A stretch of 59,701 nt of DNA from a virus (Duplodnaviria; Caudoviricetes): positions 1 through 59,701 of IMG/VR virus record IMGVR_UViG_3300028592_000011. One strand, given 5' to 3'. The notes under the pieces are model-generated. The model did not search any database. It was not told where the DNA came from and saw only the letters and a program-made list of their open reading frames with translations. A program made the translations under genes and the position numbers. Each line of letters opens with the position of its first letter. Position 1 is the stretch's first letter. Of this stretch, positions 7,525 to 59,580 are shown in pieces.

Positions 7525-7871
7525 GCCTGTCTGCCGGCCGTCTGCGCCACAAAATCAAAATCCAAGAGCCGAGGCAGCAGCAGGACCCGAATACGGGCGC
7601 GATCCGCACGGTGTGGGTGGACTTCGCCACTGATGTCGCGGCTGAGATCGCGCCGCTGAGCGTGCGCGAGTTCATCGCGTCGAGCCAGATGCAGAGTCAG
7701 ATCACTGCGCGCATCACGATCCGATATCGCGCGGGACTCACGGCGCAGATGCGGATCCTGCAGCCGAGCACCGGGAAAATTTATAACCCAGCTGGATGGC
7801 TGGCGGATCCGGACAGCGGGCGCGAGTACGTGACCGCCCCGTGTAGCGAAGGCGCGAACGCGGGAGATTGA
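7521..7871 (+). CDS. Head closure / head-tail adaptor (SPP1 gp16-like)
   Basis: AGRLRHKIKIQ, PLSVREF, ITIRYR. Confidence 0.9.
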   Translation: MSLSAGRLRHKIKIQEPRQQQDPNTGAIRTVWVDFATDVAAEIAPLSVREFIASSQMQSQITARITIRYRAGLTAQMRILQPSTGKIYNPAGWLADPDSGREYVTAPCSEGANAGD

Positions 7872-8398
7872 TGGACTTCGTTGTGCTCGCCACTGGCCAG
7901 TCGGTAACGGCTGATCAGGTGGAGTACGTCCGCGAGATGCACGCGGTCGGGAAGTGTGGCGCCATTGCGATCTCCGACATGTACGAGCTTGCGCCATGGG
8001 CCGATGCGCTCGTGAGTCAGGACCCGAACTGGTGGGCAAACAATCCCGAAGCATCGGAGTTTACGGGCCGGAAGTTCTGCGGTGGCTTCCATCCGGGCAC
8101 CGAGCGGTTGGAGCAGACCAGCGAGTTCCATTCCGGGCCGAATAGCGGCCTGCAAGGAATGCGCGTGGCGAGAGACGTGTTCCGGGCGAGCCGCATTGTG
8201 CTGATCGGCTTCGATATGCACGGTACGCACTACTTTGGTCCGCATCCAGATCCGTTACCGAACACGACGCCCGAGCGATTTCTGGCGCACATGAGGCAGT
8301 TCGCCGCGTGGCGGTCTGGCCTAGCCATCAACTGCACGCCGGGTTCGGCGCTGAAATGGTTTCCAACAGGCGATCTGCGTGAAGTTCTACGTCCTTGA
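7871..8398 (+). CDS. Maf/DUF115/GT42-like putative glycosyltransferase, paralog 1
   Basis: VLATGQS, PWAD, NSGLQG, RIVLIGFDM, HYFG motif order resembles the sialyltransferase/Maf fold. Confidence 0.6.
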   Translation: MDFVVLATGQSVTADQVEYVREMHAVGKCGAIAISDMYELAPWADALVSQDPNWWANNPEASEFTGRKFCGGFHPGTERLEQTSEFHSGPNSGLQGMRVARDVFRASRIVLIGFDMHGTHYFGPHPDPLPNTTPERFLAHMRQFAAWRSGLAINCTPGSALKWFPTGDLREVLRP

Positions 8399-9272
8399 CG
8401 AGCGCCACGTTTGGTTTGAGCCGATCATCAAGTCGGCCAAGGCGCGAGGATACGACGCTCGCCGAATCTTTCGCGGCGAGGAAGTGAACACAGAGGGCGT
8501 CGGGTTCATTCGATGCCACGCTGAACCTCAGGCGCTGCAGAAAAACCAGCGCGACTACGACCTGATGGCCGCTCGCCTGACGATGGTTCAGGACGAGACG
8601 CAGGTCAGGCTGTACGAAGACAAGAGCGGGCAATCCGCGCGCTGGTCCGAATGGATGCCGCCGACATGGCGATTCACCGATCGCGACGAGGCGCTGCAGT
8701 TCTGCGAGCGGGACGCACCGTATCCGCTGGTCAGCAAGGCGGATGTCGGGGCGAGCTCGGTCAACGTTCGCATCCTGAAGGACAAGCACGAGGCGATTGC
8801 GCACGTCGCATCGTTATTCGCTGCGGGCGTTCCGGTGCATCACTGCGCCGGCAATGCGAAGTCGGTTCAGAAGGGCTACGCACTGCTCCAGCAGTTCATC
8901 CCGCACACGGTCACGTGGCGCGTGAATGCGGTCGGCACGAAGCGTGCGGCCTTCATGCGCTACTGCTACCCCGATAGACCGGTGGCGCAGACGGGGAACG
9001 TTGAGCCAGTCATGACCGTGACCTCGCAGGTCGAATCGCTGCTGGAGTTTTCCAACAGGTTCCTGGAAGCGGCGGACACCAGGTGGTGCGCCATCGACGT
9101 GCTTCAGAACGGCGATCAGTGGCGATTGCTGGAAACAAGTCTTGCATTTCCATGGCCGTCGCCGGGCCGGTGCAACGACGCGCCGTTTTTCGGCACGAAG
9201 CGGCGCTGGATAGACATATTCGACGTGATGCTTGACGAGATCGAGGCTGGAACGTGGCAGAAGAAGCAATAG
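8379..9272 (+). CDS. ATP-grasp (RimK-like) ligase
   Basis: EDK..Q, PPTW, YPLVSKADVGASS, LLQQFIP, AIDVL...LLE. Confidence 0.8.
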   Translation: MKFYVLDERHVWFEPIIKSAKARGYDARRIFRGEEVNTEGVGFIRCHAEPQALQKNQRDYDLMAARLTMVQDETQVRLYEDKSGQSARWSEWMPPTWRFTDRDEALQFCERDAPYPLVSKADVGASSVNVRILKDKHEAIAHVASLFAAGVPVHHCAGNAKSVQKGYALLQQFIPHTVTWRVNAVGTKRAAFMRYCYPDRPVAQTGNVEPVMTVTSQVESLLEFSNRFLEAADTRWCAIDVLQNGDQWRLLETSLAFPWPSPGRCNDAPFFGTKRRWIDIFDVMLDEIEAGTWQKKQ

Positions 9273-9571
9273 CGATAGCAACCCAGATCGCCGCACGCCG
9301 GCCGCTGTGGCGTCGATGCCTGTCGCGCGTGTTCGTCCTGTACATCGTTCTCAACATGGCGCTGTGCGCCGTCGTGTTCCTGCCGTGGGCGTTACCGCGA
9401 GAAACCATTTCCGGGCTGCTGGGCCGGTGGATCTCGACAGAGCAGGGATGGAAGCGCGTCGCTGGCCTGCTGCTGGGTGGGATTGCTGACCGTATCTATT
9501 GGTGGGAGCCCGATCACTGCGTCGAAGTCTACAAATGCGAGCATCGCGCGCGCGAGGTGCTGTACCCCTGA
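9254..9571 (+). CDS. Small membrane protein
   Basis: Hydrophobic segment; ETISG...ID...W..DHC pattern. Confidence 0.65.
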   Translation: MAEEAIAIATQIAARRPLWRRCLSRVFVLYIVLNMALCAVVFLPWALPRETISGLLGRWISTEQGWKRVAGLLLGGIADRIYWWEPDHCVEVYKCEHRAREVLYP

Positions 9572-10260
9572 TGGATACCAGCAACCTCCGGCGCGCGGTG
9601 CCGGACTACGATACCGTCTCACTCAAGCGCTCGTGGATGCGGGCAGCGTTACCCGTCTTCGAGCAGCTAGGAGAACTGTCTGTCTTTCGTGCGATGTCCA
9701 TTGGCACGCGTCAGATTCTGTATCAGGCAATTCGAGCGATGGGCGCGACCAGCGTGCTGGACATCGGCACGTACACAGGGACCAGCGCTCTCAACTTCGC
9801 CCTGGCGACGGGCCGCGAAGGAAGCGTCGTGACGGTGGACATCGTCGACGCCAACGCGCCCGACGGATTCTGGGCCGTGGACAAGCGCCCGCGTTCGCCG
9901 CGTCAGCTCATGAAGGCAGCCGGGGTCGCGGAGCGCGTCGAGTTCGTGACGATGGATGCGAACGCCTACCTTCGCGAGACCGATCGCACGTTCGATTTTA
10001 TCTGCATCGACGCAGCGAAGACTGAGCAGGATACGTACGAGCAAATGGGGCTTGCACTGGCACGGCTACGACCTGACGGCCTGATCTTCATGGACGACGT
10101 ATTCGCCGATGGCGAGCCAATGCCGTCCGGTTACTTCGAGCCCGCACATTGGAACGTGCTTTGCCGCCTCGTGGATGAGGGTGTGGAGATCCATCCGATC
10201 CCAATCACAGAGACACTTCATGGCGCCCGGATTGCTTGTGCGTGGGTGATCGGCGAGTGA
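9571..10260 (+). CDS. Class I SAM-dependent (O-)methyltransferase
   Basis: VLDIGTYTGTS, VTVDI, FDFICIDA; ATG overlaps upstream stop. Confidence 0.88.
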   Translation: MDTSNLRRAVPDYDTVSLKRSWMRAALPVFEQLGELSVFRAMSIGTRQILYQAIRAMGATSVLDIGTYTGTSALNFALATGREGSVVTVDIVDANAPDGFWAVDKRPRSPRQLMKAAGVAERVEFVTMDANAYLRETDRTFDFICIDAAKTEQDTYEQMGLALARLRPDGLIFMDDVFADGEPMPSGYFEPAHWNVLCRLVDEGVEIHPIPITETLHGARIACAWVIGE

Positions 10261-10901
10261 GAGATCGGATCGTCGCCCATCGCGGAAATGCGATGGAGCA
10301 CCGGGAGAATTCTGTCGCCGCGATTCGCTCCGCCGTTGAACTTGGAGCGCGGTTCGTCGAATTCGACGTGCAGATGTCGAGCGACATGGTGCCTGTCCTG
10401 ATGCACGACGCTTGTTTGCTCCGAACTGTGGGCAAGGACCGTGATTCCTTCGATACGAGCGCTCAGGGACTGAAGGCGCTGGGTGTCGAGCCCTTGTCCG
10501 AAGGCATTGCCGCGCTGGGAGATGCGACGGCGTTCGTTGAGATCAAGCGCGACAGCGTGACGAAATTCGGCGCTCGCGCGGTTGTTGATCGGGTGTGCCA
10601 GCACTGCCCGCCGGATCAATGCGTGATCATCTCGTTCGATTACGACGCGACGCTCCTGGCTCGAGCCAAGGGCTACCGCATCGGCTTCGTCCTGCCGGAC
10701 ATGGGCAAGAGGAGCCGGGCGAGCTGTGACGTGCACAAACCCGAGTACGTCTTCGTCGATCAGAAACACGTCACCGGCCCGGTGTGGCCAGGATTTCTGT
10801 GGGTGTCCTACGAGGTTGCAGATAGAGCGATGGCTGCGCGCCTGATTGGCTACGGCGTTGACCTGCTTGAGACCATGCGCGTCCGGCAGATGCTCCAATG
10901 A
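10257..10901 (+). CDS. Glycerophosphodiester phosphodiesterase (GDPD family)
   Basis: IVAHRG..EN, VEFDVQ, VLMHD, VEIK. Confidence 0.9.
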   Translation: MRDRIVAHRGNAMEHRENSVAAIRSAVELGARFVEFDVQMSSDMVPVLMHDACLLRTVGKDRDSFDTSAQGLKALGVEPLSEGIAALGDATAFVEIKRDSVTKFGARAVVDRVCQHCPPDQCVIISFDYDATLLARAKGYRIGFVLPDMGKRSRASCDVHKPEYVFVDQKHVTGPVWPGFLWVSYEVADRAMAARLIGYGVDLLETMRVRQMLQ

Positions 10902-11617
10902 TCGCAGTCATAACGTTCAAGTGGTCGAAGCCAGGCTATCGAAGCACGTTCCTGCCGGTGCACGTCAACACGCTCCGACGGATGGTGGCCCGACATTACC
11001 CGCATCCGTTTCGATTCATCTGCGTGACTGACGATCCAGCGGGGCTGGATCCCGAGATCGAACATATCCCGCTATGGGATGACTACTCAGCGATCTCGAA
11101 TCCGTCCTGGCCGTCGGGCCCGAGCTGCTACCGCCGATTGAAAGTGCACTCGGATTGGTTCGCGGATCAGATTGGCCGCGGGACACGCATGGCTCTCATC
11201 GATCTTGATGTCGTGATCACGGATGACCTGACGCCGATCTTTCATCGAGAGGAACCGTTTCTGATGTGGGAGACCGGTAATCCATCCATCACGCACTGTG
11301 CATCGATGGTGATGGCGAGGGCGGGCGCTCACCCGGAGATATGGGACACGTTCGATTCCAAGACCTCGCCGCGCCTGGCAACACAGGACGGGCGGATGAA
11401 GGGCAGCGATCAAGCGTGGCTCTACTACGTGATGCGGAAACAGCTCGCCGGGTGGGGCACCAGACACGGCGTGTATTCGTATCGCGACCATTGCGTGAAG
11501 CAATATCAGAGCAAGCTGCCGAAGGGCGCGCGCATGGTCATATTCCACGGTCGGCCTGACCCTTGGTCCTATTCGGCGCTCCAGGCGTCTCCCTGGATTC
11601 ACGATCACTACTACTAG
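10898..11617 (+). CDS. GT-A fold glycosyltransferase (GT8-like)
   Basis: FICVTD, DLDVV (DxD), SDQAWL, IFHGRPDPW. Confidence 0.82.
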   Translation: MIAVITFKWSKPGYRSTFLPVHVNTLRRMVARHYPHPFRFICVTDDPAGLDPEIEHIPLWDDYSAISNPSWPSGPSCYRRLKVHSDWFADQIGRGTRMALIDLDVVITDDLTPIFHREEPFLMWETGNPSITHCASMVMARAGAHPEIWDTFDSKTSPRLATQDGRMKGSDQAWLYYVMRKQLAGWGTRHGVYSYRDHCVKQYQSKLPKGARMVIFHGRPDPWSYSALQASPWIHDHYY

Positions 11618-11619
11618 CG

Positions 11620-11988
11620 ATGACGCCCTCAGTATTCGCCATCGTCTCGGCATCCAGCGCGTGCCGGGCAGTGCTCGGCAGCCCGCCGAACATGCGCTTC
11701 TATCCGTTTGGCGAGGCGCCGCAAGGCAAGCCTCCGGTTTACGCCGTGTGGCAGATGCCGTTCAGCACGCCGGCTAACTATTTGGGACAGGTGCCCGACG
11801 CGGACAATGCCCGAGTGCAGATCGATGTTTATGGAACGGATCAGGCGGCCGTCACCACAGCCGGGCTTGCTATCCGGGATGCGATCCAGGAACACGCGAA
11901 CATGATCAACGCGGCTCAGCGTCCGCGCGATCCCACGACGCGCAACTACGGCTACATGCTCGACTTCGAGTTCGTCACGGACAGATGA
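11620..11988 (+). CDS. Tail terminator (DUF3168-like)
   Basis: YPFGEAPQ, PANYLGQVPDAD, VQIDVY. Confidence 0.82.
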   Translation: MTPSVFAIVSASSACRAVLGSPPNMRFYPFGEAPQGKPPVYAVWQMPFSTPANYLGQVPDADNARVQIDVYGTDQAAVTTAGLAIRDAIQEHANMINAAQRPRDPTTRNYGYMLDFEFVTDR

Positions 11989-12509
11989 CGACATGCGTCG
12001 TGCTTGCTACCGGCGAGAGCTTATCGCCGTGGCAAGTCGCGCACGTTCGAGCCGCACACGACGAAGGCCGCTGTAAGGCGGTCGCCGTGTCGGATGCTTA
12101 CCAGCTCGCGCCATGGGCGGATGCGATGGTGAGCAATGACATGCGGTGGTGGCGGCAGCACCCGGAGGCGGTGAAGTTCGCTGGCCGGAAGTTCTGCGGG
12201 GCTGATTACCGGGGCACCGAACGATTGCCACCCAACCCGACGTTTCCAGCCGGGACTAACAGTGGACTACAGGGCATGCGCGTGGCGGCAATGCTGGGAG
12301 CAACGCGGATCGTCCTGCTTGGGCTCGACATGAAGGGCACCCACTACTTCGGCAAGCATCCGTCGACGCTGAAGAACTCAACGCCCGCTGATTTCGAGCG
12401 GATGCTGATTCAGTTCCGCCGATGGAGATCGGACGCCGAAGTCATCAACTGCTCACCGGGTAGCGCGCTCACGTGCTTCAAGACCGCGAATCTCGCCGAC
12501 GTGTTGTGA
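11985..12509 (+). CDS. Maf/DUF115/GT42-like putative glycosyltransferase, paralog 2
   Basis: Clear paralog of 7871-8398 (VLATGES, PWAD, NSGLQGMRVA, LGLDM, HYFG, INCSPGSAL). Confidence 0.6.
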   Translation: MTTCVVLATGESLSPWQVAHVRAAHDEGRCKAVAVSDAYQLAPWADAMVSNDMRWWRQHPEAVKFAGRKFCGADYRGTERLPPNPTFPAGTNSGLQGMRVAAMLGATRIVLLGLDMKGTHYFGKHPSTLKNSTPADFERMLIQFRRWRSDAEVINCSPGSALTCFKTANLADVL

Positions 12510-24864: not shown

Positions 24865-25254
24865 GTGTACCAGCGCCTAATTGATCTCGTTCTCTCGCTC
24901 ATTGCCCCGCCGAGGAATGCCGGTGCTACTGAGATGCGCCGACACGCGGTCGCGCTCTCGGTCGCTGTCGCCATGATCTACGGCTACATAGCTATCTCAT
25001 GGGGCGCGCTGTCGTCAATTGGAATCTCTGGCTTTGCCAAGGCCGACGATCTGGAAAGCCTGCAGGACGAAAGCGCGGAGGTGCGAGTGACGCTGTATGG
25101 AATCGCGATCCGCGACCTGTACCGCTCGTGCCGGAATGCGGCCGACTACGATGATCGGCTCGCGCTCAACGAAGAGCTGCAGCGGGTTCGCGCCAAGTAC
25201 GAGAACGCCGTCGGCGTGCCGTACCTCCTTCCTCCGTGCATTGAGGGAAGGTAA
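24865..25254 (+). CDS. Membrane protein of lysis cassette (holin/antiholin or spanin candidate)
   Basis: One TM segment and a helical C-terminus; immediately before endolysin. Confidence 0.55.
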   Translation: MYQRLIDLVLSLIAPPRNAGATEMRRHAVALSVAVAMIYGYIAISWGALSSIGISGFAKADDLESLQDESAEVRVTLYGIAIRDLYRSCRNAADYDDRLALNEELQRVRAKYENAVGVPYLLPPCIEGR

Positions 25255-25262
25255 ACCAACCC

Positions 25263-25781
25263 ATGACTCCAGCTGATCTTGCGGCATTCATGCCGCTTGC
25301 GGGCCCGCGTGCGTCGATCTACGCCGAGCCGCTGACGCAAACGATGATCGAGTTCGGCATCGACACGCCGAAGCGACAGGCCGCCTGGCTGGCCAACCTC
25401 GCTCACGAATCCGGCAGCCTGCGCTACGTCAAAGAGATTGCCAGCGGTGCTGCGTACGAAGGCCGGCTTGATCTCGGCAACACCCAGCCGGGCGACGGCA
25501 AGCGCTTCAAAGGCCGCGGCTTCGGTCAAATCACAGGGCGCGCGAACTATCTCGCCTGCGGGCAGGCGCTTGGTTTGGACCTGATCGCGAATCCGGAATT
25601 GCTCGAGCAGCCATTGCCGGCCGCCCGATCCGCCGGGTGGTTCTGGAAAGTGAAGCGTCTCGCGCCGCTGGCCGACGACGACAAGTTCGGCTCCGTGTGC
25701 CGATTGTGGAATGGCGGTTTCAATGGAATCGATGACCGTATCCAGCACTGGCTTCGGATACGAAGGATTCTCGGACTGTGA
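25263..25781 (+). CDS. Endolysin, glycoside hydrolase family 19
   Basis: AHESG, LGN...GDG..FKGRG..QITGR.NY, NGG.NG..DR. Confidence 0.92.
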   Translation: MTPADLAAFMPLAGPRASIYAEPLTQTMIEFGIDTPKRQAAWLANLAHESGSLRYVKEIASGAAYEGRLDLGNTQPGDGKRFKGRGFGQITGRANYLACGQALGLDLIANPELLEQPLPAARSAGWFWKVKRLAPLADDDKFGSVCRLWNGGFNGIDDRIQHWLRIRRILGL

Positions 25782-25791
25782 GGTTCTGCAA

Positions 25792-26055
25792 ATGAAAGCT
25801 TTCTTCGATGAACACGGCACCAAGATCTACGGTGGCGTGACTGCATTTCTCGGTGCGCTCGCGACGCTCATTTCGACGGGCGCGTTCACCCAGTTGATGA
25901 CGCCGGTTGCGATCGGCTGGCTCAACATCTTTGTTTCTCTGGCGACCGCCACCGTCGGTGGTATGACCATCGCGCGCGGGTTCAATAACAGCACTCAAGC
26001 GAAGGTCGCCAGCGCTCTTGAAACGGCGATCAAAGCTCAATCCCCGAAGGAGTAA
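25792..26055 (+). CDS. Holin candidate (2 TM)
   Basis: Two hydrophobic helices and a charged C-terminus; after endolysin. Confidence 0.6.
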   Translation: MKAFFDEHGTKIYGGVTAFLGALATLISTGAFTQLMTPVAIGWLNIFVSLATATVGGMTIARGFNNSTQAKVASALETAIKAQSPKE

Positions 26056-26059
26056 TCCC

Positions 26060-26395
26060 ATGCGAAAACTCGCGATCATTCCCTTACTGCTGATACTCAC
26101 GGCGTGCGCCTCGCTCGGTTTGGCACCGGCGAAAACGTTCGACGAACGCTGGTCCTACGCTCAAGGGCAGACCACCGGCCTGCGCGACGCATCCACACGA
26201 GCACTCGACGCCAAGCTCATCACTTCGGGCGACATGGAGTACTGCATCGCTGTGGCCGACCGCTCGACGCAGATGCTGACCATGGCGAGGGCTGCCTACC
26301 ACGTCGGCGACATCTCGACGGCCGAAGGGCGCTTGCTTTTGGTGAGCAACATCTTGACCGATCTCGAAACGTACCTGACCCAGAGGGCTAAGTAA
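26060..26395 (+). CDS. Lipoprotein (outer-membrane spanin candidate)
   Basis: MRKLAIIPLLLILTAC lipobox; AGGAG RBS. Confidence 0.7.
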   Translation: MRKLAIIPLLLILTACASLGLAPAKTFDERWSYAQGQTTGLRDASTRALDAKLITSGDMEYCIAVADRSTQMLTMARAAYHVGDISTAEGRLLLVSNILTDLETYLTQRAK

Positions 26396-29633: not shown

Positions 29634-30716
29634 TCACTTTTTAACATTGATTTTCACCCACTCACCGCGGCCATCAACGTAGGTCGCAGTGGACTTCGGG
29701 TCCTTGTGACTGAGCAAGTCTTGAGGGTCCACATCGCCCTGCTCCTTGTGCAGTCGGGCCGCCAATGACCGAATCTCGTGGAAGGTTGGCGGCGCCTTGT
29801 CAGCCCAGTCGATGCCCAGCTTCGCGAGCTCGGCGGAGAATACCCGAGTGATCATGTCCACGTGCAATGGCTTGCCGATCGTGGCGCCCTTGACTCGCTG
29901 GGTCTGGTGTACGAGGTAGATACTCACGATGCCAGTCTTGCGGCACTGGCTGACGACATCCTCGAGACTCATGCCAAAGACGTTCAGGCGTAGATGCATC
30001 GGCAGGAAGAAGCGTGCGCCTGTTTTGGTTCGCTCGCACCACCAGCCACCATCGCGGAAGTCTGTGAATTTCGCATTCCGAACGCTATCCCGGTCTTTGC
30101 CAGCCACAAGCGCGAGGGCGATGGCATTGCGTAGCCATACGATCTCGGTGGTTTTGTAGAGCCTCATAAGCACGTCCAGCGTGAGCCTGGAGCGCTTCAC
30201 CTTGACCTTGACCTCATCCAGCACCCGCGCCGGGTTGTCCTTGCGCCAGCCCTTGGCGATCATCCTGTCGAAGCAGTCGACCAAGAATGACCGGAATGCC
30301 TGAGCAGTGCGGGCTTTGCCTTCCGAGGTGATCTGGTCAATCACCTTGGCACAGTCCTGCGTGCTGATGCGCGAGGCGGCCAGATCAGCCTCGAAGCACC
30401 GACGTAGGCGGTTCAGCTGGCTCTTGCGGGTGCGTCGCGTATTCGGCCTGGAGTCGCGCTCCTCCAGGATCTTCTCGAAGATGTCGCACCACTCGCCCCA
30501 AGTGTTAGCTGCTCCGGTGATGCGCTCGAGCAGGCTAGGGCGCTTCGATGCGAGGTACACCTCTGCGGCGAGAACTTCCTGGATGGCCTTCGTCCGATCG
30601 CGGCCGAGCCCATGCTCGACGCCAGTCTCGGGGTTCGTCCACGAGTAGTAGCCATCGCGCACTCGCATACCAGGCCGAAGGGAACGATTGATCGCTTTAC
30701 GCTGCCTTGGAGCCAT
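29634..30716 (-). CDS. int: Lambda-type tyrosine integrase
   Basis: Arm-binding N-domain (GYY.W..P.TG...GLGRDR..AI), KTG, FHEIRSL, LLSHK, Tyr in TATYVDGRG. Confidence 0.93.
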   Translation of the reverse strand: MAPRQRKAINRSLRPGMRVRDGYYSWTNPETGVEHGLGRDRTKAIQEVLAAEVYLASKRPSLLERITGAANTWGEWCDIFEKILEERDSRPNTRRTRKSQLNRLRRCFEADLAASRISTQDCAKVIDQITSEGKARTAQAFRSFLVDCFDRMIAKGWRKDNPARVLDEVKVKVKRSRLTLDVLMRLYKTTEIVWLRNAIALALVAGKDRDSVRNAKFTDFRDGGWWCERTKTGARFFLPMHLRLNVFGMSLEDVVSQCRKTGIVSIYLVHQTQRVKGATIGKPLHVDMITRVFSAELAKLGIDWADKAPPTFHEIRSLAARLHKEQGDVDPQDLLSHKDPKSTATYVDGRGEWVKINVKK

Positions 30717-30906
30717 AGAAACCAGCTGCCTTCGATGGGTCGCGACCGATGAAGACCGCGCTCGGATCAACATAGTACGGCTTCCCGACGCGCTCAGGAG
30801 CTGGGAAAATCCACCCGTCGCGGGCCCAGCGCTGCAGCGTCTTGATGTTGGGCACCGGATCGAACCGAGCAGCTGCCCATGCCTGCAATGTGATCTTCTT
30901 GCTCAT
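30697..30906 (-). CDS. xis: Excisionase (lambda Xis-like)
   Basis: ITL..W......P...TL.RW...G.I.P.P...G..Y; overlaps int start. Confidence 0.88.
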   Translation of the reverse strand: MSKKITLQAWAAARFDPVPNIKTLQRWARDGWIFPAPERVGKPYYVDPSAVFIGRDPSKAAGFYGSKAA

Positions 30907-52955: not shown

Positions 52956-53150
52956 ATGAGGAGAAAAATTTTGAAAGGTTCAGACTGGGTTCTGGTTTGG
53001 TCGTGGGCGGCGTTCCTGCTGTTCCTCGGCCCGTTTCTCATCTCAGCCCGCGACAGCCTCATGGTGTTCGTTGGCTTGGGGATTCTTGCTGCGCTGGTCT
53101 ACTTCACGCAGCGTCGTATCGTTCCAATCATCCAGGAGAAAATTAAGTGA
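52956..53150 (+). CDS. Two-TM membrane protein
   Basis: Hydrophobic; coupled to SPFH gene. Confidence 0.55.
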   Translation: MRRKILKGSDWVLVWSWAAFLLFLGPFLISARDSLMVFVGLGILAALVYFTQRRIVPIIQEKIK

Positions 53151-54001
53151 GAAAGATCCTATTGGTCATGATTGCGCTGGCGCTCAGCGCGTGCTCGAAG
53201 GTTCCTGCCGGCAATGTCGGCATCAAGTTCTACCTGCTGGGCGGCGACAAGGGCGCGGACACCGAGGAGCTTGGGCCCGGCCGATACTGGATCGGGGTCA
53301 ACGAGGAATTGTATCTGTTCCCCACGTTCACGCAGAACTACACCTGGACCAAGGAGCCGATTGACGGCGACGCCGCTGACGAGTCGATCACGTTCCAGAC
53401 GAATCAGGGCCTGTCGGTCAATGCGGATGTCGGCATTAGCTACGCAGTCGATCCGAGAAAGGTCACCGATCTATTCCAGAAGTATCGCAAGGGCATCGAA
53501 GAGATCACCGACACGTACTTGCGCAACATGGTTCGCGATGCACTTGTGACAGCTGCCAGCACGCGCGAGATTGAGATGGTGTACGGCCAGGGCAAGGCGG
53601 AGTTACTGGCCGAGGTTGAAAAGCGCGTCCGCGAGCAGGTCGACCCGCTGGGCATCAAGATCGAACGTTTGTATTGGGCCGGCGACTTCCGGCTGCCAGC
53701 GACAGTGACGGCCGCCATTGACGCCAAGATCAAGGCCACGCAATTCGCTCAGCAACGCGCCAACGAAGTCGCGGCCGCCAAGGCCGAAGCAGACAAGGCC
53801 GTCGAAGAGGCGCGCGGCGTTGCTGAATCCACCTTGCTCAAGGCGAAGGCCGAAGCCGAAGCGATCCGCATCAAGGGATCTGCGCTCTCCGAGAATCCCA
53901 AGCTCGTGGAACTGTCCGCCGTCGAGAAGTGGGACGGCAAGATGCCTCAGTTCACCGGCGGTGGTGCTATCCCGTTTGTGACGGTGCCACAGGGCAAGTG
54001 A
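53147..54001 (+). CDS. SPFH/band-7 (prohibitin-like) lipoprotein
   Basis: LSAC lipobox, VPAG.VG, A..EA repeats, EKWDG..P. Confidence 0.88.
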   Translation: MRKILLVMIALALSACSKVPAGNVGIKFYLLGGDKGADTEELGPGRYWIGVNEELYLFPTFTQNYTWTKEPIDGDAADESITFQTNQGLSVNADVGISYAVDPRKVTDLFQKYRKGIEEITDTYLRNMVRDALVTAASTREIEMVYGQGKAELLAEVEKRVREQVDPLGIKIERLYWAGDFRLPATVTAAIDAKIKATQFAQQRANEVAAAKAEADKAVEEARGVAESTLLKAKAEAEAIRIKGSALSENPKLVELSAVEKWDGKMPQFTGGGAIPFVTVPQGK

Positions 54002-54002
54002 C

Positions 54003-54389
54003 GTGAGGTGGACCGAGGAGCAGTTCGCCGACTTCCAGCGCGGGCGCGTACAGCCTGCGCCGGCCAAGCCGCGGAAGTATCGCAACAAGCCTTGCCAGGC
54101 GGACGGCGAGAAGTTCGATTCGAAGCTGGAAGCGACTCGTTTCCAGCTTCTGCAGCTGCAGGAGAAGGCCGGCGAGATCCGCGACCTTCGCGCGCATGTG
54201 AGCTTCCCGTTGATGGTGGGCGACGCACTCATCGGTGCCTATGAGGCGGACGCCGTCTATACCGAAGTCGCGACCGGACGGAAGGTGGTCGAGGATTCGA
54301 AGGGAGTCCGAACGCCGCTTTTCCGTTGGAAGGCACGCCACTTCAAGGCGCAGTACGGATTCGCGATTACTGAGGTTCGAAAGCGATGA
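54003..54389 (+). CDS. DUF1064 PD-(D/E)xK endonuclease
   Basis: KY.NK....DG..FDSK.EA, Y.AD..Y, VED.KG. Confidence 0.85.
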   Translation: MRWTEEQFADFQRGRVQPAPAKPRKYRNKPCQADGEKFDSKLEATRFQLLQLQEKAGEIRDLRAHVSFPLMVGDALIGAYEADAVYTEVATGRKVVEDSKGVRTPLFRWKARHFKAQYGFAITEVRKR

Positions 54390-54595
54390 GCGCAGTCAAA
54401 GAGCGATACCTGTCCTACGGCGCAAACCTGGGCTTCGTGCGGCTGTACTGTGGCGCGTGCAAGTCTGAAACATTGCACCGATCCCAGCTGTGCATCCACT
54501 GTGGCACGGCTGCGACCATCGTCCAGCGCGCCAATGCGATGTCAGCGCAGCAGCAGTACAAAGATGGGCTGCAGTTGCGACGGAGGCGGGCATGA
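54386..54595 (+). CDS. Small Zn-finger protein
   Basis: C..C....H....C..CG. Confidence 0.55.
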   Translation: MSAVKERYLSYGANLGFVRLYCGACKSETLHRSQLCIHCGTAATIVQRANAMSAQQQYKDGLQLRRRRA

Positions 54596-55131
54596 AACGC
54601 GATCCAGTTTCTTACGTCGACCGTGGCAGGCCCGGTCTGCGCTATGTGGATGGCCAGTTGCCAACGGTGCGGGAGCCGGAGGCGGTCCCGCATAAGGTGC
54701 TGACCAAGGAGGCACTACAAGAGCGGGGCGACTCCGAGTTCCCAGATGCAGACGCCGCGCTCGAGCACTGGGCAGCGTGGGCGAAATCGGCTCTGTCGAG
54801 CATGGGCTGGCCACCGCGGACGCTGCTCGCGAGGATCATTGAATGCGGTGTGTTAGGTGCAGCTCAGCGTGGGAGTGGCATGCTGTTGGTGGTCGGCAGC
54901 ATGGTTGAATATGACGAGCTGTGCGCATGGGTAGAGGCGGCGGTCATGCGGCTCACGCTCACCGAGCGAAACGTTATCGTACGTGCGTACATGCATTTCG
55001 AGTCACCAGAGGCATCGGCGCGGGAGCTTGAGATGTCCGCATCGAACTTTCGTCAGATCCTGTACCGTGCGCGCCGATCTGTTCGTGACTATCTCGACGG
55101 CAGAAAAGCTGCAAAGGCAGTTGTGTTATAA
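54592..55131 (+). CDS. Late gene regulator (Q-like, sigma region-4 HTH)
   Basis: L..WA.W, AV..L...ER.VI...Y, C-terminal HTH; precedes promoter and terminator. Confidence 0.7.
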   Translation: MKRDPVSYVDRGRPGLRYVDGQLPTVREPEAVPHKVLTKEALQERGDSEFPDADAALEHWAAWAKSALSSMGWPPRTLLARIIECGVLGAAQRGSGMLLVVGSMVEYDELCAWVEAAVMRLTLTERNVIVRAYMHFESPEASARELEMSASNFRQILYRARRSVRDYLDGRKAAKAVVL

Positions 55132-55171: not shown

Positions 55172-55202
55172 GAGCCCCGCTTCGTGCGGGGTTCTTCGTT
55201 TC
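55172..55202 (+). terminator. tR'-like terminator
   Basis: GAGCCCCGC-ttcgt-GCGGGGTTC followed by TTCGTTT. Confidence 0.6.
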
Positions 55203-55280
55203 TGGCCGCTCCGTCCAACACCTCACGCTAACCCCTAGCATCGCGGGCGAGAGGCGGCCACCTAACATTCGGAGCCTCGC

Positions 55281-56486
55281 ATGTACTTCCACCGTTTGAT
55301 CGTGGCGGTTGCCCTGTGCCTGATCGTGACTGGCGTGGCGATCGCGGCGGAACGATCTGCGGTCCCGTCCGTCACCTATACGTTGCTACGCTCGGGCGCA
55401 TCGCTCGGGACGCATGAGTCGAAGGAGTCGTGCGACATCGCGCTCCAGGCACAGCGGACAATCGATGCAACGAGGACATCCGGACAGATCCGCTACGTCT
55501 GCCGGACCGATGAGGCGTTAACCGTTCAGTACGGGCCGAACCCGACCTGCCCGGCGCTGCCAGCACCGCAAGGGCGTGTTGTTGATTGTCCCGCAGGGTT
55601 CATCGGCGCATACACGCAGACGCTGTCCTATACGCGCGCCTCGTATCCAACTTGCGCCATTCCTGGCCAATGGACGCCCGCTGAGCCGCCGGCCGGCATC
55701 TGTGTTCCTGTTCCGCCGCCCGAGCCCGAGGATCTGCCGCCGCCAGCGAATGTCCGCGCCCAAGGCATAAGCACGAGCGCGATCCGTGTTACTTGGGATG
55801 CGGTCACCGGCGCTTCGGCATATTCGCTTGAGCGCTGCATCGGCGCGACGTGCGCCGGGTTCTCGCAGTTGCTGTGTGTGCCGGGCCTGAGTGGCAATCA
55901 CTCCGGTCTGCCGGCCAATCTCACCGCCCGATATCGCGTTCGCGGCTCGCGTGATGCTGCCTGCGGTACCGCCGCCGGCAACCTCGGCGAGTACAGCGCG
56001 GTCGTCAGCGGCACGACGTTGAGCGCGCCGGCACCGACGCCGGTCAATTGCGCCGTCAGTGCGTGGAGTGCTTGGAGCGCGGGTGCCTGGTCGGCCTGTA
56101 GCGGTGGCCAGCAGTCGCGGACCGAAACACGCACGCGCACGGTGACGACGCAGCCTGCGAATGGTGGCACTGCCTGCCCGGCGTTGATCGAGACGCGGAC
56201 CACGACGCAGGCGTGCAGCTTGCCGGCGACTGGCACGGCGACGCTCCCGTGGACCGCGCCGACGCACAACACGGACGGATCAGTGCTCACTGACTTGGCG
56301 GGCTACCGAGTGGTGTGGGGCCAAGATCCAAACGCGCTGACCAATGTGCAGCAGGTTGGGCCTGCAGTCGGAACCTACACCGTCACCGAGCTATCACCGG
56401 GCACTTGGTATCTGGCGGTGAAGGCATTCAGCGCCAGCGGTCGCGAATCCGACTTGTCGGCAGTGAGATCAAAGGTCATTCGCTGA
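55281..56486 (+). CDS. Secreted Cys-rich protein: signal peptide, FN3, thrombospondin type-1 repeat, FN3
   Basis: Signal peptide; PP.NV...S..I.VTW and WTAP...DG...L.GY.V.W FN3 motifs; C.VS.WS.WS...RTRTV...P.NGG..CP.L.E. Confidence 0.8.
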   Translation: MYFHRLIVAVALCLIVTGVAIAAERSAVPSVTYTLLRSGASLGTHESKESCDIALQAQRTIDATRTSGQIRYVCRTDEALTVQYGPNPTCPALPAPQGRVVDCPAGFIGAYTQTLSYTRASYPTCAIPGQWTPAEPPAGICVPVPPPEPEDLPPPANVRAQGISTSAIRVTWDAVTGASAYSLERCIGATCAGFSQLLCVPGLSGNHSGLPANLTARYRVRGSRDAACGTAAGNLGEYSAVVSGTTLSAPAPTPVNCAVSAWSAWSAGAWSACSGGQQSRTETRTRTVTTQPANGGTACPALIETRTTTQACSLPATGTATLPWTAPTHNTDGSVLTDLAGYRVVWGQDPNALTNVQQVGPAVGTYTVTELSPGTWYLAVKAFSASGRESDLSAVRSKVIR

Positions 56487-56490
56487 TTTC

Positions 56491-56715
56491 GTGATGACGT
56501 ACTACGAGCATCGAAAGCTGAGTGATTGCGAATATCTCACGCAGCTGTTCGCGGCTCACACCTCGACAACCAAAGCAGCGGCGGCGGCTGGTGTGAACCG
56601 AACCACGCTCTATAAGATTGCCGCTCGCTGCGGTTTCAGCATGCCTCAACGGCCAGCGGGCAACCGCGGCACTGAAGCCTGGCAGCGCCTCACCGCTGAG
56701 TCTCGGGCGCACTGA
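56491..56715 (+). CDS. Fis-like HTH protein
   Basis: TKAA..AGVNRTTLYK. Confidence 0.65.
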   Translation: MMTYYEHRKLSDCEYLTQLFAAHTSTTKAAAAAGVNRTTLYKIAARCGFSMPQRPAGNRGTEAWQRLTAESRAH

Positions 56716-57983
56716 TGGCCTGGGAAGACGTAACCGCCAGCTTCTCGGAGATGCCCGCGGAGCTGGGCGGCACCGATGGCCGCAAGGTCATGCTGGATAT
56801 CCCCAGCGAGGATTGGGGCGAGCAGGTAGGCACAGGCGCGTCAGCAACGCGTATCGTTGGTGGCGCCTTCGACGGATCAGACTCGATTCGACTGGTCCCG
56901 CCGACGGTTGACGAGAGCTACGCTTGTATCCTGCGGTTTCTGGACCTCAGTGACGGCGGCGACAAAGACGTTGCGCAGGTCAACCTCGGCTTCTGCATCA
57001 AGGCAGGCCCCACGTATTGGAGCCTTGCAGGTGAGGATAAGCTGACCGGCGTTCAGGCGAGCACCACGGTAGGTGGCGAACCGAACGCCTCGCTATCTCG
57101 TGCGGCCATCTTCGATGCGCACAAGGCGCCCGGTGATGACCGGCGCCTGTACTCGATCACGGCAACCACCGTTGCAAGCTATCATCAACCGCCCTCGGGA
57201 ACCTTCCCGGACACGGGCGATGACGAAGATAAGTTGCTCATCCTAGGCAACACCTCGGATCATGACAACGATCCGCCGCTGGTCAACTCCGAGTGGCTGT
57301 ACTTCGAGCAAGAGGTCGACTACCGGCAGGACCGCGGTAACGCGAACGGCCGCAACCGATTGGATGTCTGGTCGCGCGACGGATATCTGGGATATCTCGA
57401 GATCCCGCTGAGCTGGCGTGAAACCGGACCAGATCCAGACGGCGATCCGTGGGACTTCTCATATCGCTATGCCCGGGTCATTGAGTTCATCGGTGGCTAC
57501 TGGAACGATCAAGCCACACCTGACGAGGACAACTATCTCGAGCTGTCGCACGTCATCGTCGCGGTCAACCGGGCGAAGGACGCGCGGATTGGGCCGCCGG
57601 AGGAGTTCACGGAGGGTGAGGACCCAGATCCGGATCCGGACACGACGCCGAATGCGTTTTCGTTCACGGACCAGACCGGTGTCGCGCGCTCAAGCACGAT
57701 CACCTCAGCGCCGGTCACGATCACGGGCATCGATGCTACCGTTACGTTCGATGCAACAGGTGGGACAATCGATGTCAACGGAGACGGTGATTTCCAAACA
57801 TCTCGCGATGTGACGAACGGTGATCAGATCAGGGCTCGGCATACGAGCAGCGCCAGTTACCTCACTGCGGTCAATACATTGGTTGAGGGTGGCGGCGTCT
57901 CGGACACGTTCACCAGTACGACCTTGGAAGAAGGCGAGGTCATCCCTCCAGCCTATCGATGGTTCAGAGTGCCCCGCAGATGA
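56715..57983 (+). CDS. Acidic beta-rich protein with C-terminal DTTP..F.F.D domain (virion/adhesin candidate)
   Basis: Jelly-roll-like N-part, DP linker, Thr-rich C-domain. Confidence 0.6.
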   Translation: MAWEDVTASFSEMPAELGGTDGRKVMLDIPSEDWGEQVGTGASATRIVGGAFDGSDSIRLVPPTVDESYACILRFLDLSDGGDKDVAQVNLGFCIKAGPTYWSLAGEDKLTGVQASTTVGGEPNASLSRAAIFDAHKAPGDDRRLYSITATTVASYHQPPSGTFPDTGDDEDKLLILGNTSDHDNDPPLVNSEWLYFEQEVDYRQDRGNANGRNRLDVWSRDGYLGYLEIPLSWRETGPDPDGDPWDFSYRYARVIEFIGGYWNDQATPDEDNYLELSHVIVAVNRAKDARIGPPEEFTEGEDPDPDPDTTPNAFSFTDQTGVARSSTITSAPVTITGIDATVTFDATGGTIDVNGDGDFQTSRDVTNGDQIRARHTSSASYLTAVNTLVEGGGVSDTFTSTTLEEGEVIPPAYRWFRVPRR

Positions 57984-58471
57984 CCGAATGTATCGCCAAG
58001 ATCAAAGCCTGTCAGGGTGATCAGGCCAAGCTCGACTATGCGTTCGACCTGACCGAGCGTTTCGCGATTCCGCGGCAGCCGAACCATCCGTACGCGGAGA
58101 GCGCCTGCGTGCGGCCGACCGAGGGCGAAACAGGGCGTCAGTATCGCTCAAGCGGTGGCGTCACCAACGGTGATGACTTCGAACCGCAATGGCCGGCAGA
58201 GGATGGCGGCGAGGTTGTTGACGGCTCACTCACGTGGACCGGTGAGGACATCACGTTCGAGAGCCTGCGCTACCGGATCGACAGCGTCGAATGGACTGCG
58301 CCGGATGGCATCACGCTCTCGGATGAACTGGTCATCGATCAGCCAGCACTGCAGGAGGCGCGAGTCACCGTGGCAGGTGGTGTCGCCGGCCAGAAGTACC
58401 GCATCGTCGGCGTGGTCACGACCACGACTGGCCTCGAGTACGAAGTGCGGATTGAGTTGAAGGTGAAGTGA
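57980..58471 (+). CDS. Phage fibre-adaptor-like protein
   Basis: LDY.FD ... GG..G..Y.I...V.T..G with an inserted EP.WP....V.DG..TW module. Confidence 0.55.
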   Translation: MTECIAKIKACQGDQAKLDYAFDLTERFAIPRQPNHPYAESACVRPTEGETGRQYRSSGGVTNGDDFEPQWPAEDGGEVVDGSLTWTGEDITFESLRYRIDSVEWTAPDGITLSDELVIDQPALQEARVTVAGGVAGQKYRIVGVVTTTTGLEYEVRIELKVK

Positions 58472-59217: not shown

Positions 59218-59580
59218 GTGCCATCTCTGCTACGCAACCATCGCGCACCGTCACACAGCGGTAGGCAGCACACACCTCGACGGGATGCAGGCCAGCGGAC
59301 GCGCAAGCGCTTCTATGACTCGGCACTATGGCAGCAGACCCGAGAGGCAAAGCTGCGCCGTGATCCGTTCTGCCAGTGCTGTGCGGTCGATGAGATCGTG
59401 ATCGAGGCAAGGCACGTCGACCACTGGACGCCACTGGCTCAGGGTGGCCACCCGACAGCCGATGACAACCTCGTATCGATGTGCGTTCCATGCCACTCGC
59501 GCAAGACCCTGGCCGAGCAGGCAGGGACGGCGCTGCCACGCGTCATGCCGAGCCGGCCGCGTTGCATTGCGATTGCGTGA
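59218..59580 (+). CDS. HNH endonuclease (HK97 gp74-like packaging cofactor)
   Basis: FY.S..W, P.C..C, VDH..P...GG....NL...C..CH.RKT; upstream of terS on the circular map. Confidence 0.88.
   Translation: MPSLLRNHRAPSHSGRQHTPRRDAGQRTRKRFYDSALWQQTREAKLRRDPFCQCCAVDEIVIEARHVDHWTPLAQGGHPTADDNLVSMCVPCHSRKTLAEQAGTALPRVMPSRPRCIAIA

Follow-up and report, generated by a model that had tools for sequence, protein, structure and literature searches.

The window, a stretch of 59,701 nucleotides that represents the complete genome of a temperate siphophage, contains between a regulator gene and the terminase gene a gene for a modular protein of 401 aa, in which a genuine but reduced, four-cysteine form of the thrombospondin type-1 repeat (TSR) is combined with FN3 domains and a predicted signal peptide. 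Our preferred, albeit tentative, interpretation is that this protein may be made late in infection, exported and, being non-catalytic, bind glycans of the bacterial envelope or matrix. The initial annotation had read the gene product as a secreted protein rich in cysteine, with a signal peptide, two FN3 domains and an adhesin-like, modular make-up, and our analysis supported each of these points, export as a prediction. No paralogue of the protein was found in the phage genome. The mature protein consists, in this order, of an N-domain, a Cys-rich domain, a first FN3 domain, the TSR-like domain and a C-terminal FN3 domain:

55271-55274, plus strand: ribosome-binding site GGAG, 6 nt 5' of the ATG (direct reading of the sequence)
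55281-56486, plus strand: gene for the modular protein with predicted export, 401 aa (translation identical to that quoted in the initial annotation)
55281-55349, plus strand: Sec-type signal peptide, aa 1-23, predicted cleavage between AIA and AE (by inspection)
55350-55538, plus strand: N-domain, aa 24-86, beta-beta-alpha-beta with Cys51 and Cys74, mobile, no named family (model)
55539-55730, plus strand: Cys-rich domain, aa 87-150, with invariant Cys90, Cys103, Cys125 and Cys141, mobile, no named family (alignment and model)
55731-56030, plus strand: first FN3-like domain, aa 151-250, with four conserved Cys (PHROGs, model, Foldseek)
56043-56219, plus strand: reduced thrombospondin type-1 repeat, aa 255-313 (Pfam TSP1_spondin, PF19028)
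56226-56483, plus strand: C-terminal FN3 domain, aa 316-401 (Pfam fn3, PF00041, aa 319-391)

Judged by eye, the N-terminus has all parts of a Sec (SPase I) signal peptide, namely a basic n-region (MYFHR), a hydrophobic core (LIVAVALCLIVTGVA) and a small-x-small site of the A-x-A type. In the AF2 model residues 2-19 form a separate helix, and a hydrophobic N-terminus was present in 11 of 11 aligned relatives. The protein contains 15 cysteines, of which 14 follow the signal peptide; all 14 were invariant or at least 90% conserved in an alignment of 11 full-length relatives, which fits folding outside the cytoplasm. From these features we infer that the protein is exported and its signal peptide cleaved. 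A lipoprotein reading was rejected, since the lipobox pattern [LVI][ASTVI][GAS]C was absent from the end of the signal peptide; its only cysteine is that of VALC, where Leu occupies position -1.

The spondin-like TSR that had been proposed for the protein was upheld as a homologue but not as a canonical member of the family. In the Pfam scan the segment matched TSP1_spondin with an E-value of 1e-8, far beyond chance, yet its 35.8 bits miss the curated cut-off of 41 bits and therefore do not constitute a curated-threshold match. The residues expected to form the CWR layers, i.e. the Trp ladder of strand A (WxxW; W262, W265 and W270) and the alternating Arg of strand B (R280, R284 and R286), are present, and W13, W21, R31, R35, R37 and all four cysteines (C257, C273, C299 and C312) were invariant in alignment A2, which comprises 10 phage or metagenome copies. 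Since there are only four cysteines instead of the six that form three disulfides, we classify the domain as a reduced TSR homologue. The missing third disulfide and the likewise absent CSxTCG motif are both commonest in eukaryotes. The TSR domain was modelled with a pLDDT of 87 and strands at positions 8-10, 28-41 and 53-62. Foldseek gave no match to this model at E <= 0.001, with TSR entries in 9 of the 10 top rows, and in VIA 10 of the 11 top rows were TSRs by title, the best at Z 4.2 with an rmsd of 3.0 over 50 residues and none at Z 5 or above. In addition, all 10 matches of a phage-TSR profile against the PDB were TSR domains (best match R-spondin-2, E 8.3e-4), and phmmer reached an animal coadhesin through the TSR segment alone (P0062). 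Elsewhere PF19028 scored 21-40 bits in single-copy relatives and 57.4 bits in a two-copy relative (P0047).

PF19028 was built for the C1-C4 class of TSRs, as stated in bioRxiv 10.1101/779553, and the phage domain shares with the spondin-type repeats of this family (clan CL0692; F-spondin, R-spondin, coadhesin) the N-terminal cysteine before the Trp strand that defines this class, the WxxW motif followed by alternating Arg on the next strand and, as far as the model indicates, the long three-strand layout; GGxxCP and ETR segments are in common with the coadhesin TSR. It differs from them in the loss of the second cysteine of CSxTCG together with its partner, in a third Trp shifted by two residues, in its score below the Pfam cut-off and in its occurrence in a bacteriophage protein.

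The two N-terminal modules were found in further combinations: the N-domain precedes a TSR also in P0037, P0041, P0044, P0047, P0051, P0055 and P0060 and forms repeats in P0108, and the Cys-rich domain is present in 5-10 copies in P0093, P0096 and P0099. A search of the ESM atlas with aa 24-150 gave no feature match and, by structure, only unnamed bacterial proteins of 69 aa, so that both domains stay without a family name. The first FN3 domain, modelled as a beta-sandwich, had no Pfam match; in PHROGs it matched FN3 segments of phage tail proteins (E 7.5e-5 to 1.8e-3), and it contributed to the Foldseek matches of the whole model, which consisted of tandem-FN3 arrays only and were uninformative on the remaining modules. 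The C-terminal FN3 domain scored above the Pfam cut-off (32.4 vs 25 bits) and was modelled with a pLDDT of about 86-93. Searches of Pfam, PHROGs, NCBIfam and PADLOC revealed no catalytic, toxin or eukaryote-specific domain in the protein, TSR and FN3 being the only domains recognized; NCBIfam and PADLOC gave no match to it.

All relatives found came from viral contigs without a cultivated source or, in a few cases, from metagenome-assembled genomes (MAGs). Scans for the TSR yielded 68 viral loci vs 14 in 185,579 species genomes, with different patterns used in the two scans. The possibility that a host gene had been captured, raised in the initial annotation, was rejected, as the domain is rare in genomes, where it occurs in MAGs only, and the phage context of the gene is conserved. 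Among 50,697 GenBank phage records neither tblastn nor megablast gave a match to the protein, to the 9.7-kb region or to a multi-TSR relative, and at E <= 1 only marginal FN3 matches in actinophage minor tail proteins were obtained. The sequencing runs containing the stretch included no RNA run; they comprised one soil-metagenome DNA run, from which the stretch may originate, and 13 runs with small shares. A literature search in full texts retrieved no paper on phage TSRs or exported phage FN3 proteins; PMC7824862, which it returned, deals with the unrelated TSP N-terminal module. The C-terminal FN3 domain had 85 relatives in IMG/VR, and 63 of 73 distinct viral ORFs with this domain were signal-peptide-like by a home-made rule, compared to 79 of 651 other ORFs at the same loci; judging from these ORFs, the domain appears to mark a large, unstudied family of signal-peptide-like phage proteins. 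Of the 46 loci examined, 23 had within a few genes a gene that is Q-like or serves lysis, packaging or virion structure, and some family members are located apart from clear late genes.

Several relatives carry the N-terminal modules and/or the TSR fused to Beta_helix/NosD domains (P0039, L102, L118, P0147, P0158, P0171 and P0225), to a GH140-type apiosidase domain (P0154) or to DUF4874/DUF4832 (P0157). Among 40 relatives of the N-terminal modules, picked mostly from longer matches, 6 contained an enzyme-like domain and 25 had no Pfam match. In phage proteins the reduced, four-cysteine TSR is a mobile module that is joined to unnamed mobile modules and to putatively polysaccharide-active domains. 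Moreover, TSR arrays occur on host-contacting phage virion proteins, among them a crAss-type muzzle protein with 10 TSRs and other large virion proteins. These arrays of up to 10 copies (L114, L104 and L121, in low-G+C viral contigs) belong to the same Pfam family as the TSR studied here but exceed the Pfam cut-off many times and are located at the C-terminus of proteins of 1,500-2,500 aa that have no signal peptide, so that a TSR as such need not be exported.

The gene context comprises the following features:

54490-55131, plus strand: putative regulator of late genes, 213 aa, with weak resemblance to Q and to sigma-70 region 4 (Pfam, PHROGs, NCBIfam)
55172-55204, plus strand: terminator-like hairpin with a 9-bp G+C-rich stem and a 5-nt loop (55172-55194), followed by TTCGTTTCTG (hairpin scan)
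56491-56715, plus strand: helix-turn-helix-like protein, 74 aa, 4 nt past the stop codon of the TSR gene (same-position relatives in L004/L139 and L011)
56715-57983, plus strand: protein of 422 aa with an N-terminal jelly-roll and a C-terminal Ig-like domain, its start overlapping the preceding stop codon (ESM atlas, Pfam)
57959-58471, plus strand: Gp77-type fibre-tail adaptor domain protein, 170 aa (Pfam PF23148, 35.5 bits vs a cut-off of 27)

The initial annotation had placed the gene behind a Q-like gene, a putative pR' promoter and a putative tR' terminator. By itself the terminator-like hairpin is no more than shuffled sequences give (1 found vs 1.5 expected), and the intergenic region folds at -52.1 kcal/mol with a z of -2.24. 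The same arrangement is kept 5' of the relatives in L003/L099, L006, L010, L100 and L101, where the stems differ, the tail TTCGTT(T)CTGG is the same and 3 of the 9 hairpin pairs show a compensatory change; these loci establish a conserved terminator in front of the gene. The regulator matched Sigma70_r4_2 (E 6e-4) and Phage_antitermQ (PF06530; E 0.047, 14.1 bits vs 26) in Pfam, both below the cut-offs, as well as the activator family phrog_248 (8.3e-5) and the Q-like phrog_79 (1.6e-4) in PHROGs, and its NCBIfam matches (sigma70-ECF, PA0613 family, ArpU) were all far under the cut-offs, so that it cannot be assigned to the lambda Q antiterminator family. A consensus scan detected no sigma-70 promoter near the gene. 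An SPFH lipoprotein, itself an exported accessory protein, is encoded two genes upstream.

In lambdoid phages accessory genes, such as stx in Stx phages, are located behind Q, pR' and tR'. Like these, the gene studied here is the first one behind a regulator and a terminator, and is therefore probably expressed only when the late operon fires; its position in the gene map suggests that it is the first late gene, as had been proposed. In contrast, the comparison with the toxin slot of Stx phages did not hold: the gene encodes no toxin, the regulator is no clear Q, and instead of lysis genes, with the endolysin at 25263-25781 and thus 30 kb away, the gene is followed by the small helix-turn-helix protein, a polysaccharide-lyase-like protein, the fibre-tail adaptor and then the terminase. 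Unlike a sporadic insert, it has also been retained together with its neighbours in different phage lineages. In L101, the closest relative, hairpin, TSR protein with predicted export, helix-turn-helix protein, lyase-like protein, adaptor (76% identity, same position) and terS follow one another as they do here, and L101, L003/L099 and L002/L116 each encode a homologue of the 422-aa protein just 3' of the TSR/FN3 gene. Altogether, linkage of the gene to a fibre-like protein and the fibre-tail adaptor was found in four phage lineages, and the tight packing within the block, with a 4-nt gap and overlapping stop and start codons, fits a late operon. For the 422-aa protein the ESM atlas provided PL14 and PF14099 as leads with sub-threshold feature scores of 0.83-0.85 and TM values by row of up to 0.68, and Pfam a match to Glucodextran_B (E 1.7e-3); a resemblance of its jelly-roll to polysaccharide lyases is thus suggested as a lead only. 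A predicted complex of this neighbour with the mature TSR protein (score 0.00, mark 0.32) counts neither for nor against binding. A Rosetta-stone link between the two was discarded after BLASTP against P0060, which has a TSR and a large C-terminal domain, showed no similarity, and a spanin reading of the TSR protein was dropped with the location of the candidate lysis genes at 24865-26395. Lipobox lipoproteins at 53147 and 26018, together with a membrane protein adjoining the endolysin, were counted in favour of a Gram-negative host.

Taken as a tentative model, the gene would be transcribed with the late genes of the phage from a start behind the late regulator and through the conserved terminator, and Sec would carry the protein to the periplasm of the host, probably a Gram-negative bacterium, where about seven disulfides would staple it. 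It would then be released at cell lysis or act in the envelope shortly before. The most likely target would be a bacterial polysaccharide, either in the envelope or in the extracellular matrix, and the phage might benefit in that the protein works with the lyase-like fibre protein, whose gene is the second one downstream, or coats cells and debris so that progeny escape trapping. FN3 and TSR domains imply binding only generically, and FN3 domains in bacterial enzymes can be mere spacers; the link to glycans is suggested by the module fusions and the lyase-like neighbour, i.e. by association. The initial annotation had instead considered eukaryotic grazers, matrix or receptors as targets of an effector released at lysis. 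TSRs are indeed best known as adhesion modules of animals and apicomplexans, as described in PMC3417536, and the TSR segment is 47% identical to an ascidian coadhesin TSR. We nevertheless regard a eukaryotic target as extremely improbable, because the TSR subfamily of prokaryotes and phages occurs joined to domains of bacterial type and on phage parts that touch the host, the protein has no toxin or eukaryote-specific domain, and the features commonest in eukaryotic TSRs are both missing. Given the fusions to bacterial-type polysaccharide-active domains and the TSR arrays on host-contacting virion proteins, a bacterial surface glycan is the more economical target.

A fairly unlikely alternative is that the protein is a lysogenic-conversion or superinfection-exclusion factor, which would be made by the prophage, reside in the periplasm or envelope and block adsorption or DNA entry of other phages or alter the lysogen surface. 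The phage encodes an integrase (29634-30770), the protein has a predicted export signal, an exported lipoprotein is encoded nearby, and the location of some family members distant from clear late genes would also agree with such a role. Cor, Llp and Bor are exported phage envelope proteins, of which Cor and Llp block other phages. The 401-aa protein resembles them in being phage-encoded, predicted to be exported and proposed to act in or on the host envelope, but it has neither sequence similarity to them nor a lipobox, and it is much larger and modular. The conserved terminator, the tight coupling to the downstream fibre and adaptor genes and the scan without a promoter-like site of the gene's own also argue against this role, as does the lack of a PADLOC match, though PADLOC covers exclusion proteins poorly. 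We consider it very unlikely that the protein is instead an adhesin associated with virion or fibre, with a hydrophobic N-terminus that does not work in export or with decoration of particles after lysis. Its linkage to the fibre-like and adaptor genes and the TSR arrays and FN3 domains on phage structural and tail proteins would fit this role. Fraser et al. reportedly described in 2006 the display of Ig-like and FN3 domains on phage structural proteins; Hoc-type decoration is known as well, and FN3 modules on phage proteins are presumed to adhere weakly to surface carbohydrates. The protein shares with these the phage-encoded FN3 modules, through which the PHROGs tail-protein matches arose. 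Its canonical A-x-A signal peptide, conserved across the family, and its fourteen conserved cysteines, which favour folding in an oxidizing compartment beyond the cytoplasm, set it apart from them and make its intracellular assembly into the particle improbable; we know of no tailed phage that exports a part of its virion.

Beyond this phage, the gene draws attention to a large family of signal-peptide-bearing proteins encoded in late regions of phages. It is quite improbable, though conceivable from the sequences, that signal-peptide-bearing FN3/TSR proteins represent a widespread unrecognized class in tailed phages that would be adhesins exported before lysis, fold in the periplasm with the help of the disulfide machinery of the host and act outside the cell, either as a coat on host polysaccharide and debris against trapping and for release or by loading onto freed particles. 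Such loading, if true, would complete virion maturation outside the cell, and a phage built in the cytoplasm would thereby gain disulfide-stapled adhesion modules. Should the ligand of the 401-aa protein be a host exopolysaccharide, the protein would also provide small glycan-binding modules that disulfides keep stable. To our knowledge tailed phages have, apart from lysis and exclusion factors, no known need for binding proteins that are exported, and a conserved late exported adhesin therefore suggests that a step coinciding with lysis or following it has gone unstudied.

The 401-aa protein encoded by the TSR gene begins, as proposed in the initial annotation, with what looks like a Sec signal peptide (residues 1-23); its predicted cleavage site falls between AIA and AE. 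The many cysteines noticed in that annotation amount to 14 in the mature part, and across an alignment of 11 full-length relatives (43-94% identity) each of them is either invariant or conserved to at least 90%. Combined with export, this even and conserved cysteine set suggests that the protein folds oxidatively outside the cytoplasm. The signal-peptide core, (V/A)G(L/I)CL(I/L)V (window 55302-55340), is conserved in sequence, beyond mere hydrophobicity, across otherwise diverged relatives, namely at the N-termini of the related proteins P0001-P0006 and of those at the related loci L003, L006, L008 and L101. With a mean pLDDT of 77 and a pTM of 0.29, the AF2 model describes the single domains well but not how they are placed relative to one another:

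aa 26-83, N-domain, beta-beta-alpha-beta
aa 97-132, small Cys-rich beta domain
aa 159-245, first beta-sandwich
aa 257-311, TSR-like unit of three strands
aa 318-400, second beta-sandwich

Both FN3 domains seen initially are borne out, the C-terminal one by a score above the Pfam cut-off and the first by PHROGs matches to the FN3 parts of tail proteins and Foldseek matches to tandem-FN3 arrays. For the spondin-like TSR the homology stood and the full form did not. The segment matches Pfam TSP1_spondin (E 1e-8, 35.8 bits) without reaching the cut-off of 41 bits, and when the full 401-aa sequence is used as a phmmer query, this segment alone provides the link to the ascidian coadhesin P0062. A profile built from ten TSR copies of phage and metagenome origin, searched against the PDB at E <= 10, matched ten sequences, all of them TSR domains, including R-spondin-2 (E 8.3e-4), F-spondin TSR1 and TSR4, complement C9, C8 alpha and beta, and MIC2. 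Folded alone, the domain reached a pLDDT of 87; Foldseek gave no significant match for this model, with TSR entries in nine of the ten top rows, and the Foldseek-independent VIA search (48,161 chains) placed them in 10 of its top 11, led by BAI1 TSR3 (Z 4.2, rmsd 3.0 A over 50 residues). Because no VIA row attained Z 5, the fold evidence taken alone is weak. The conserved residues comprise the tryptophans W262, W265 and W270 and the alternating arginines R280, R284 and R286. PF19028 was created for the C1-C4 class of TSRs (bioRxiv 10.1101/779553), and the N-terminal cysteine of the phage TSR fits this class. The phage TSR lacks the second cysteine of the usual CSxTCG as well as the partner of that cysteine. 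By two formal measures, the Pfam cut-off and six cysteines, the segment falls short of TSR membership, and since only four cysteines are present we regard it as a reduced TSR homologue.

The IMG/VR virus record is complete (59,701 bp, rated 100% by CheckV), and PHROGs annotation shows a temperate siphophage with the following map:

112-2152, terS and terL, then protease, capsid and portal genes (PHROGs)
up to about 23.7 kb, tail genes (PHROGs)
25263-25781, endolysin, flanked by membrane and lipoprotein genes
29634-30770, minus strand, integrase, with recombination and replication genes after it
53147-54001, SPFH lipoprotein
54003-54389, DUF1064 resolvase-like gene
54490-55131, 213-aa regulator, directly before the TSR gene
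55172-55204, terminator-like hairpin, 9-bp G+C-rich stem, then TTCGTTTCTG
55281-56486, plus strand, TSR gene (401 aa) with a GGAG site ahead
next, after a gap of 4 nt, 74-aa HTH-like gene
56715-57983, 422-aa gene, its start codon overlapping the preceding stop codon
57959-58471, 170-aa gene overlapping the 422-aa gene, small ORFs after it
59218-59580, HNH gene, with the terminase beyond, across the record's ends

Given this order of regulator, TSR gene and, further on, terminase, the TSR gene, by position, opens the late block, as had been claimed, and the block that it heads contains no lysis genes in the gene map of the window. Three separate HNH endonuclease genes occur in this 60-kb phage (24134-24784; 35888-36430, minus strand; 59218-59580), one adjoining terS as usual and another between the tail and lysis genes. 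Two phrog_4603 paralogues (annotated as alpha-2,3-sialyltransferase), a methyltransferase and a glycosyltransferase break up the head-tail connector region (7868-8398, 9499-10260, 10898-11617 and 11985-12509). Genes for sugar modification are unusual there and may hint at glycosylated virion proteins. Right after the portal gene, a 302-aa protein (6039-6947) carries collagen-like repeats of tail-fibre type and a C-terminal segment matching portal-protein families.

The proposed tR'-like element ahead of the TSR gene is supported by comparison. The intergenic RNA folds with a z of -2.24, the frequency of the single hairpin site not exceeding that in shuffles, and relatives at L003/L099, L006, L010, L100 and L101 have hairpins that differ in their stems and share the TTCGTT(T)CTGG tail, placed about 50-165 nt ahead of the signal-peptide core. 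Compensatory change is seen in three of nine pairs, and a terminator-like site lies at most 330 nt upstream at 20 of 86 loci, compared with 26 of 460 random windows. A sigma-70 consensus scan found no promoter for the putative pR', and the upstream gene taken as Q-like retains that likeness only alongside an equal one to sigma region 4, every match being far below cut-offs.

The closest phage, L101 (terS 91%, adaptor 76% and HNH 78% identity), shares the order of hairpin, exported TSR protein, small HTH gene, 422-aa homologue, adaptor and terS; its TSR protein has only 250 aa (N-domain, TSR, FN3), and its 422-aa homologue has 623 aa with a triplicated Ig-like segment. At L003/L099 and L002/L116, too, the exported gene is closely followed by a homologue of the N-terminal 300 residues of the 422-aa protein. 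In the ESM atlas the 422-aa protein, which has an Ig-like C-terminus, shows likeness to polysaccharide lyases of PL14 and PF14099 (feature scores 0.83-0.85, TM by row up to 0.68), matches that serve as leads only, and the 170-aa protein contains a Gp77 fibre-tail adaptor domain above the Pfam cut-off. The two genes sit before the terminase, outside the tail module of this siphophage. Among 46 loci of the wider FN3 family (16 plus 30 more), a late-type neighbour was present at 23:

Q-like: L002, L040, L067
endolysin or holin: L019, L026, L028, L084
terminase or HNH-terminase: L016, L053, L025, L050, L013, L027, L044, L051, L060, L066
tail or structural: L003, L004, L008, L042, L078, L081

Replication-type neighbours were found at two (L011, L021), and the remaining loci were uninformative. 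In some phages additional signal-peptide-like ORFs adjoin the family gene (L002:8459-9151 and 9156-11696; L016:6360-6776, 139 aa, between terminase and portal, with a match to phrog_16194 'tail protein').

A word-indexed search matched 92 proteins, none with an informative name; the full-length ones (P0001-P0009) lie on metagenome contigs no longer than 92 kb. The modules are mobile: P0017 has no TSR, P0016 carries a He_PIG domain in place of the first FN3, and P0039 retains the N-terminal 150 residues and the TSR and ends in a Beta_helix/NosD domain. In P0003, P0005, P0006, P0007 and P0009 a DSDGDGVPD...CP motif resembling the calcium-binding thrombospondin type-3 repeat is inserted between the Cys-rich domain and FN3 (columns ~174-200 of the full-length alignment), and with Pfam TSP_3 found in P0158, type-1 and type-3 thrombospondin modules thus occur in one phage protein family. 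The segment aa 24-150 alone retrieved 207 cluster representatives among 1.84 billion proteins (E <= 1e-3), and its N-domain and Cys-rich domain each recur as independent repeats in some of them. Pfam domains in a biased sample of these relatives (40 of 150 among the matches listed, mostly longer ones) were Beta_helix (4), fn3 (5), DUF1996 (1), DUF4874/DUF4832 (1) and, in one protein, a GH140-type apiosidase with a collagen-binding domain; 25 of the 40 had no Pfam match.

The C-terminal FN3 has 85 confirmed IMG/VR relatives (80 loci kept), and 63 of the 73 distinct ORFs with this domain begin, as judged by a simple rule, with a signal-peptide-like N-terminus, compared with 79 of the 651 other ORFs from the same loci that are at least 120 aa long; several of the ten rule-negative ORFs are truncated or over-extended. 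The TSR profile found 68 distinct loci in IMG/VR, five labelled giant-virus MAGs, and only 14 in prokaryotes (185,579 species, one genome each), counts that are indicative only since the two scans used different peptide patterns. Of the 14, 13 are in MAGs or single-cell assemblies and the sole isolate is a weak partial match; no match was found in any of 50,697 deposited phage genomes. The MAG proteins also have signal peptides or, in Bdellovibrio, prepilin-like N-termini (L093:3699-6266 and L094:6738-8462, starting ..FSLIE..), which suggests that this predatory bacterium bears a TSR on a pilin-like protein. Two groups stand out at the 59 of 68 viral loci examined: high-G+C contigs encode signal-peptide proteins resembling the 401-aa protein, and low-G+C contigs encode proteins of 1,500-2,500 aa with no signal peptide. 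Among the latter, proteins of 1,600-2,500 aa have bona fide TSR arrays at the C-terminal end, as at L114:869-7687 (10 copies, E 1.5e-116, with an N-terminus matching the crAss muzzle family PF25731) and also L117, L120 and L137, and at L104:1328-8008 (eight copies) and also L105, L113 and L133. A further family with a MYPN.YC start (P0035; L107, L108, L119, L123, L127, L131, L132, L134, L143, L146; 290-600 aa, 29-46 Cys, several TSRs plus FN3, no signal peptide) is carried on low-G+C viral contigs of 20-120 kb.

TSRs are treated in reviews as animal and apicomplexan modules (PMC3417536), and our full-text literature search found no paper on TSRs in phages or on exported FN3 proteins of phages. 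New here are the exported, non-virion setting of a phage TSR, its conserved head-of-late-operon position with a terminator, and its tie to a large signal-peptide FN3 family and two unnamed mobile modules. The eukaryotic targets considered initially would make the protein a eukaryote-directed effector, which we judge very improbable; a virion-associated adhesin, attachment after lysis included, is also improbable. Expression from the prophage as an exclusion or conversion factor would suit a temperate phage and is somewhat less unlikely.

We tentatively favour a binder of polysaccharides of the bacterial surface or matrix, made late, exported and freed at lysis. The protein is a chain of binding-type modules that looks exported, is stapled by cysteines and contains no catalytic domain; its gene stands at the head of the late block, next to a lyase-like fibre gene and the adaptor gene of that fibre, in a phage context that is conserved. 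The protein would cross the inner membrane by Sec and fold with periplasmic disulfide formation. A polysaccharide ligand is suggested by the fusion of its own modules elsewhere to beta-helix and glycosidase-like domains and by TSR arrays on phage parts that touch the host. For the phage, such a binder might, speculatively, aid the depolymerase-like fibre, mask receptors on debris or ease release from the matrix.
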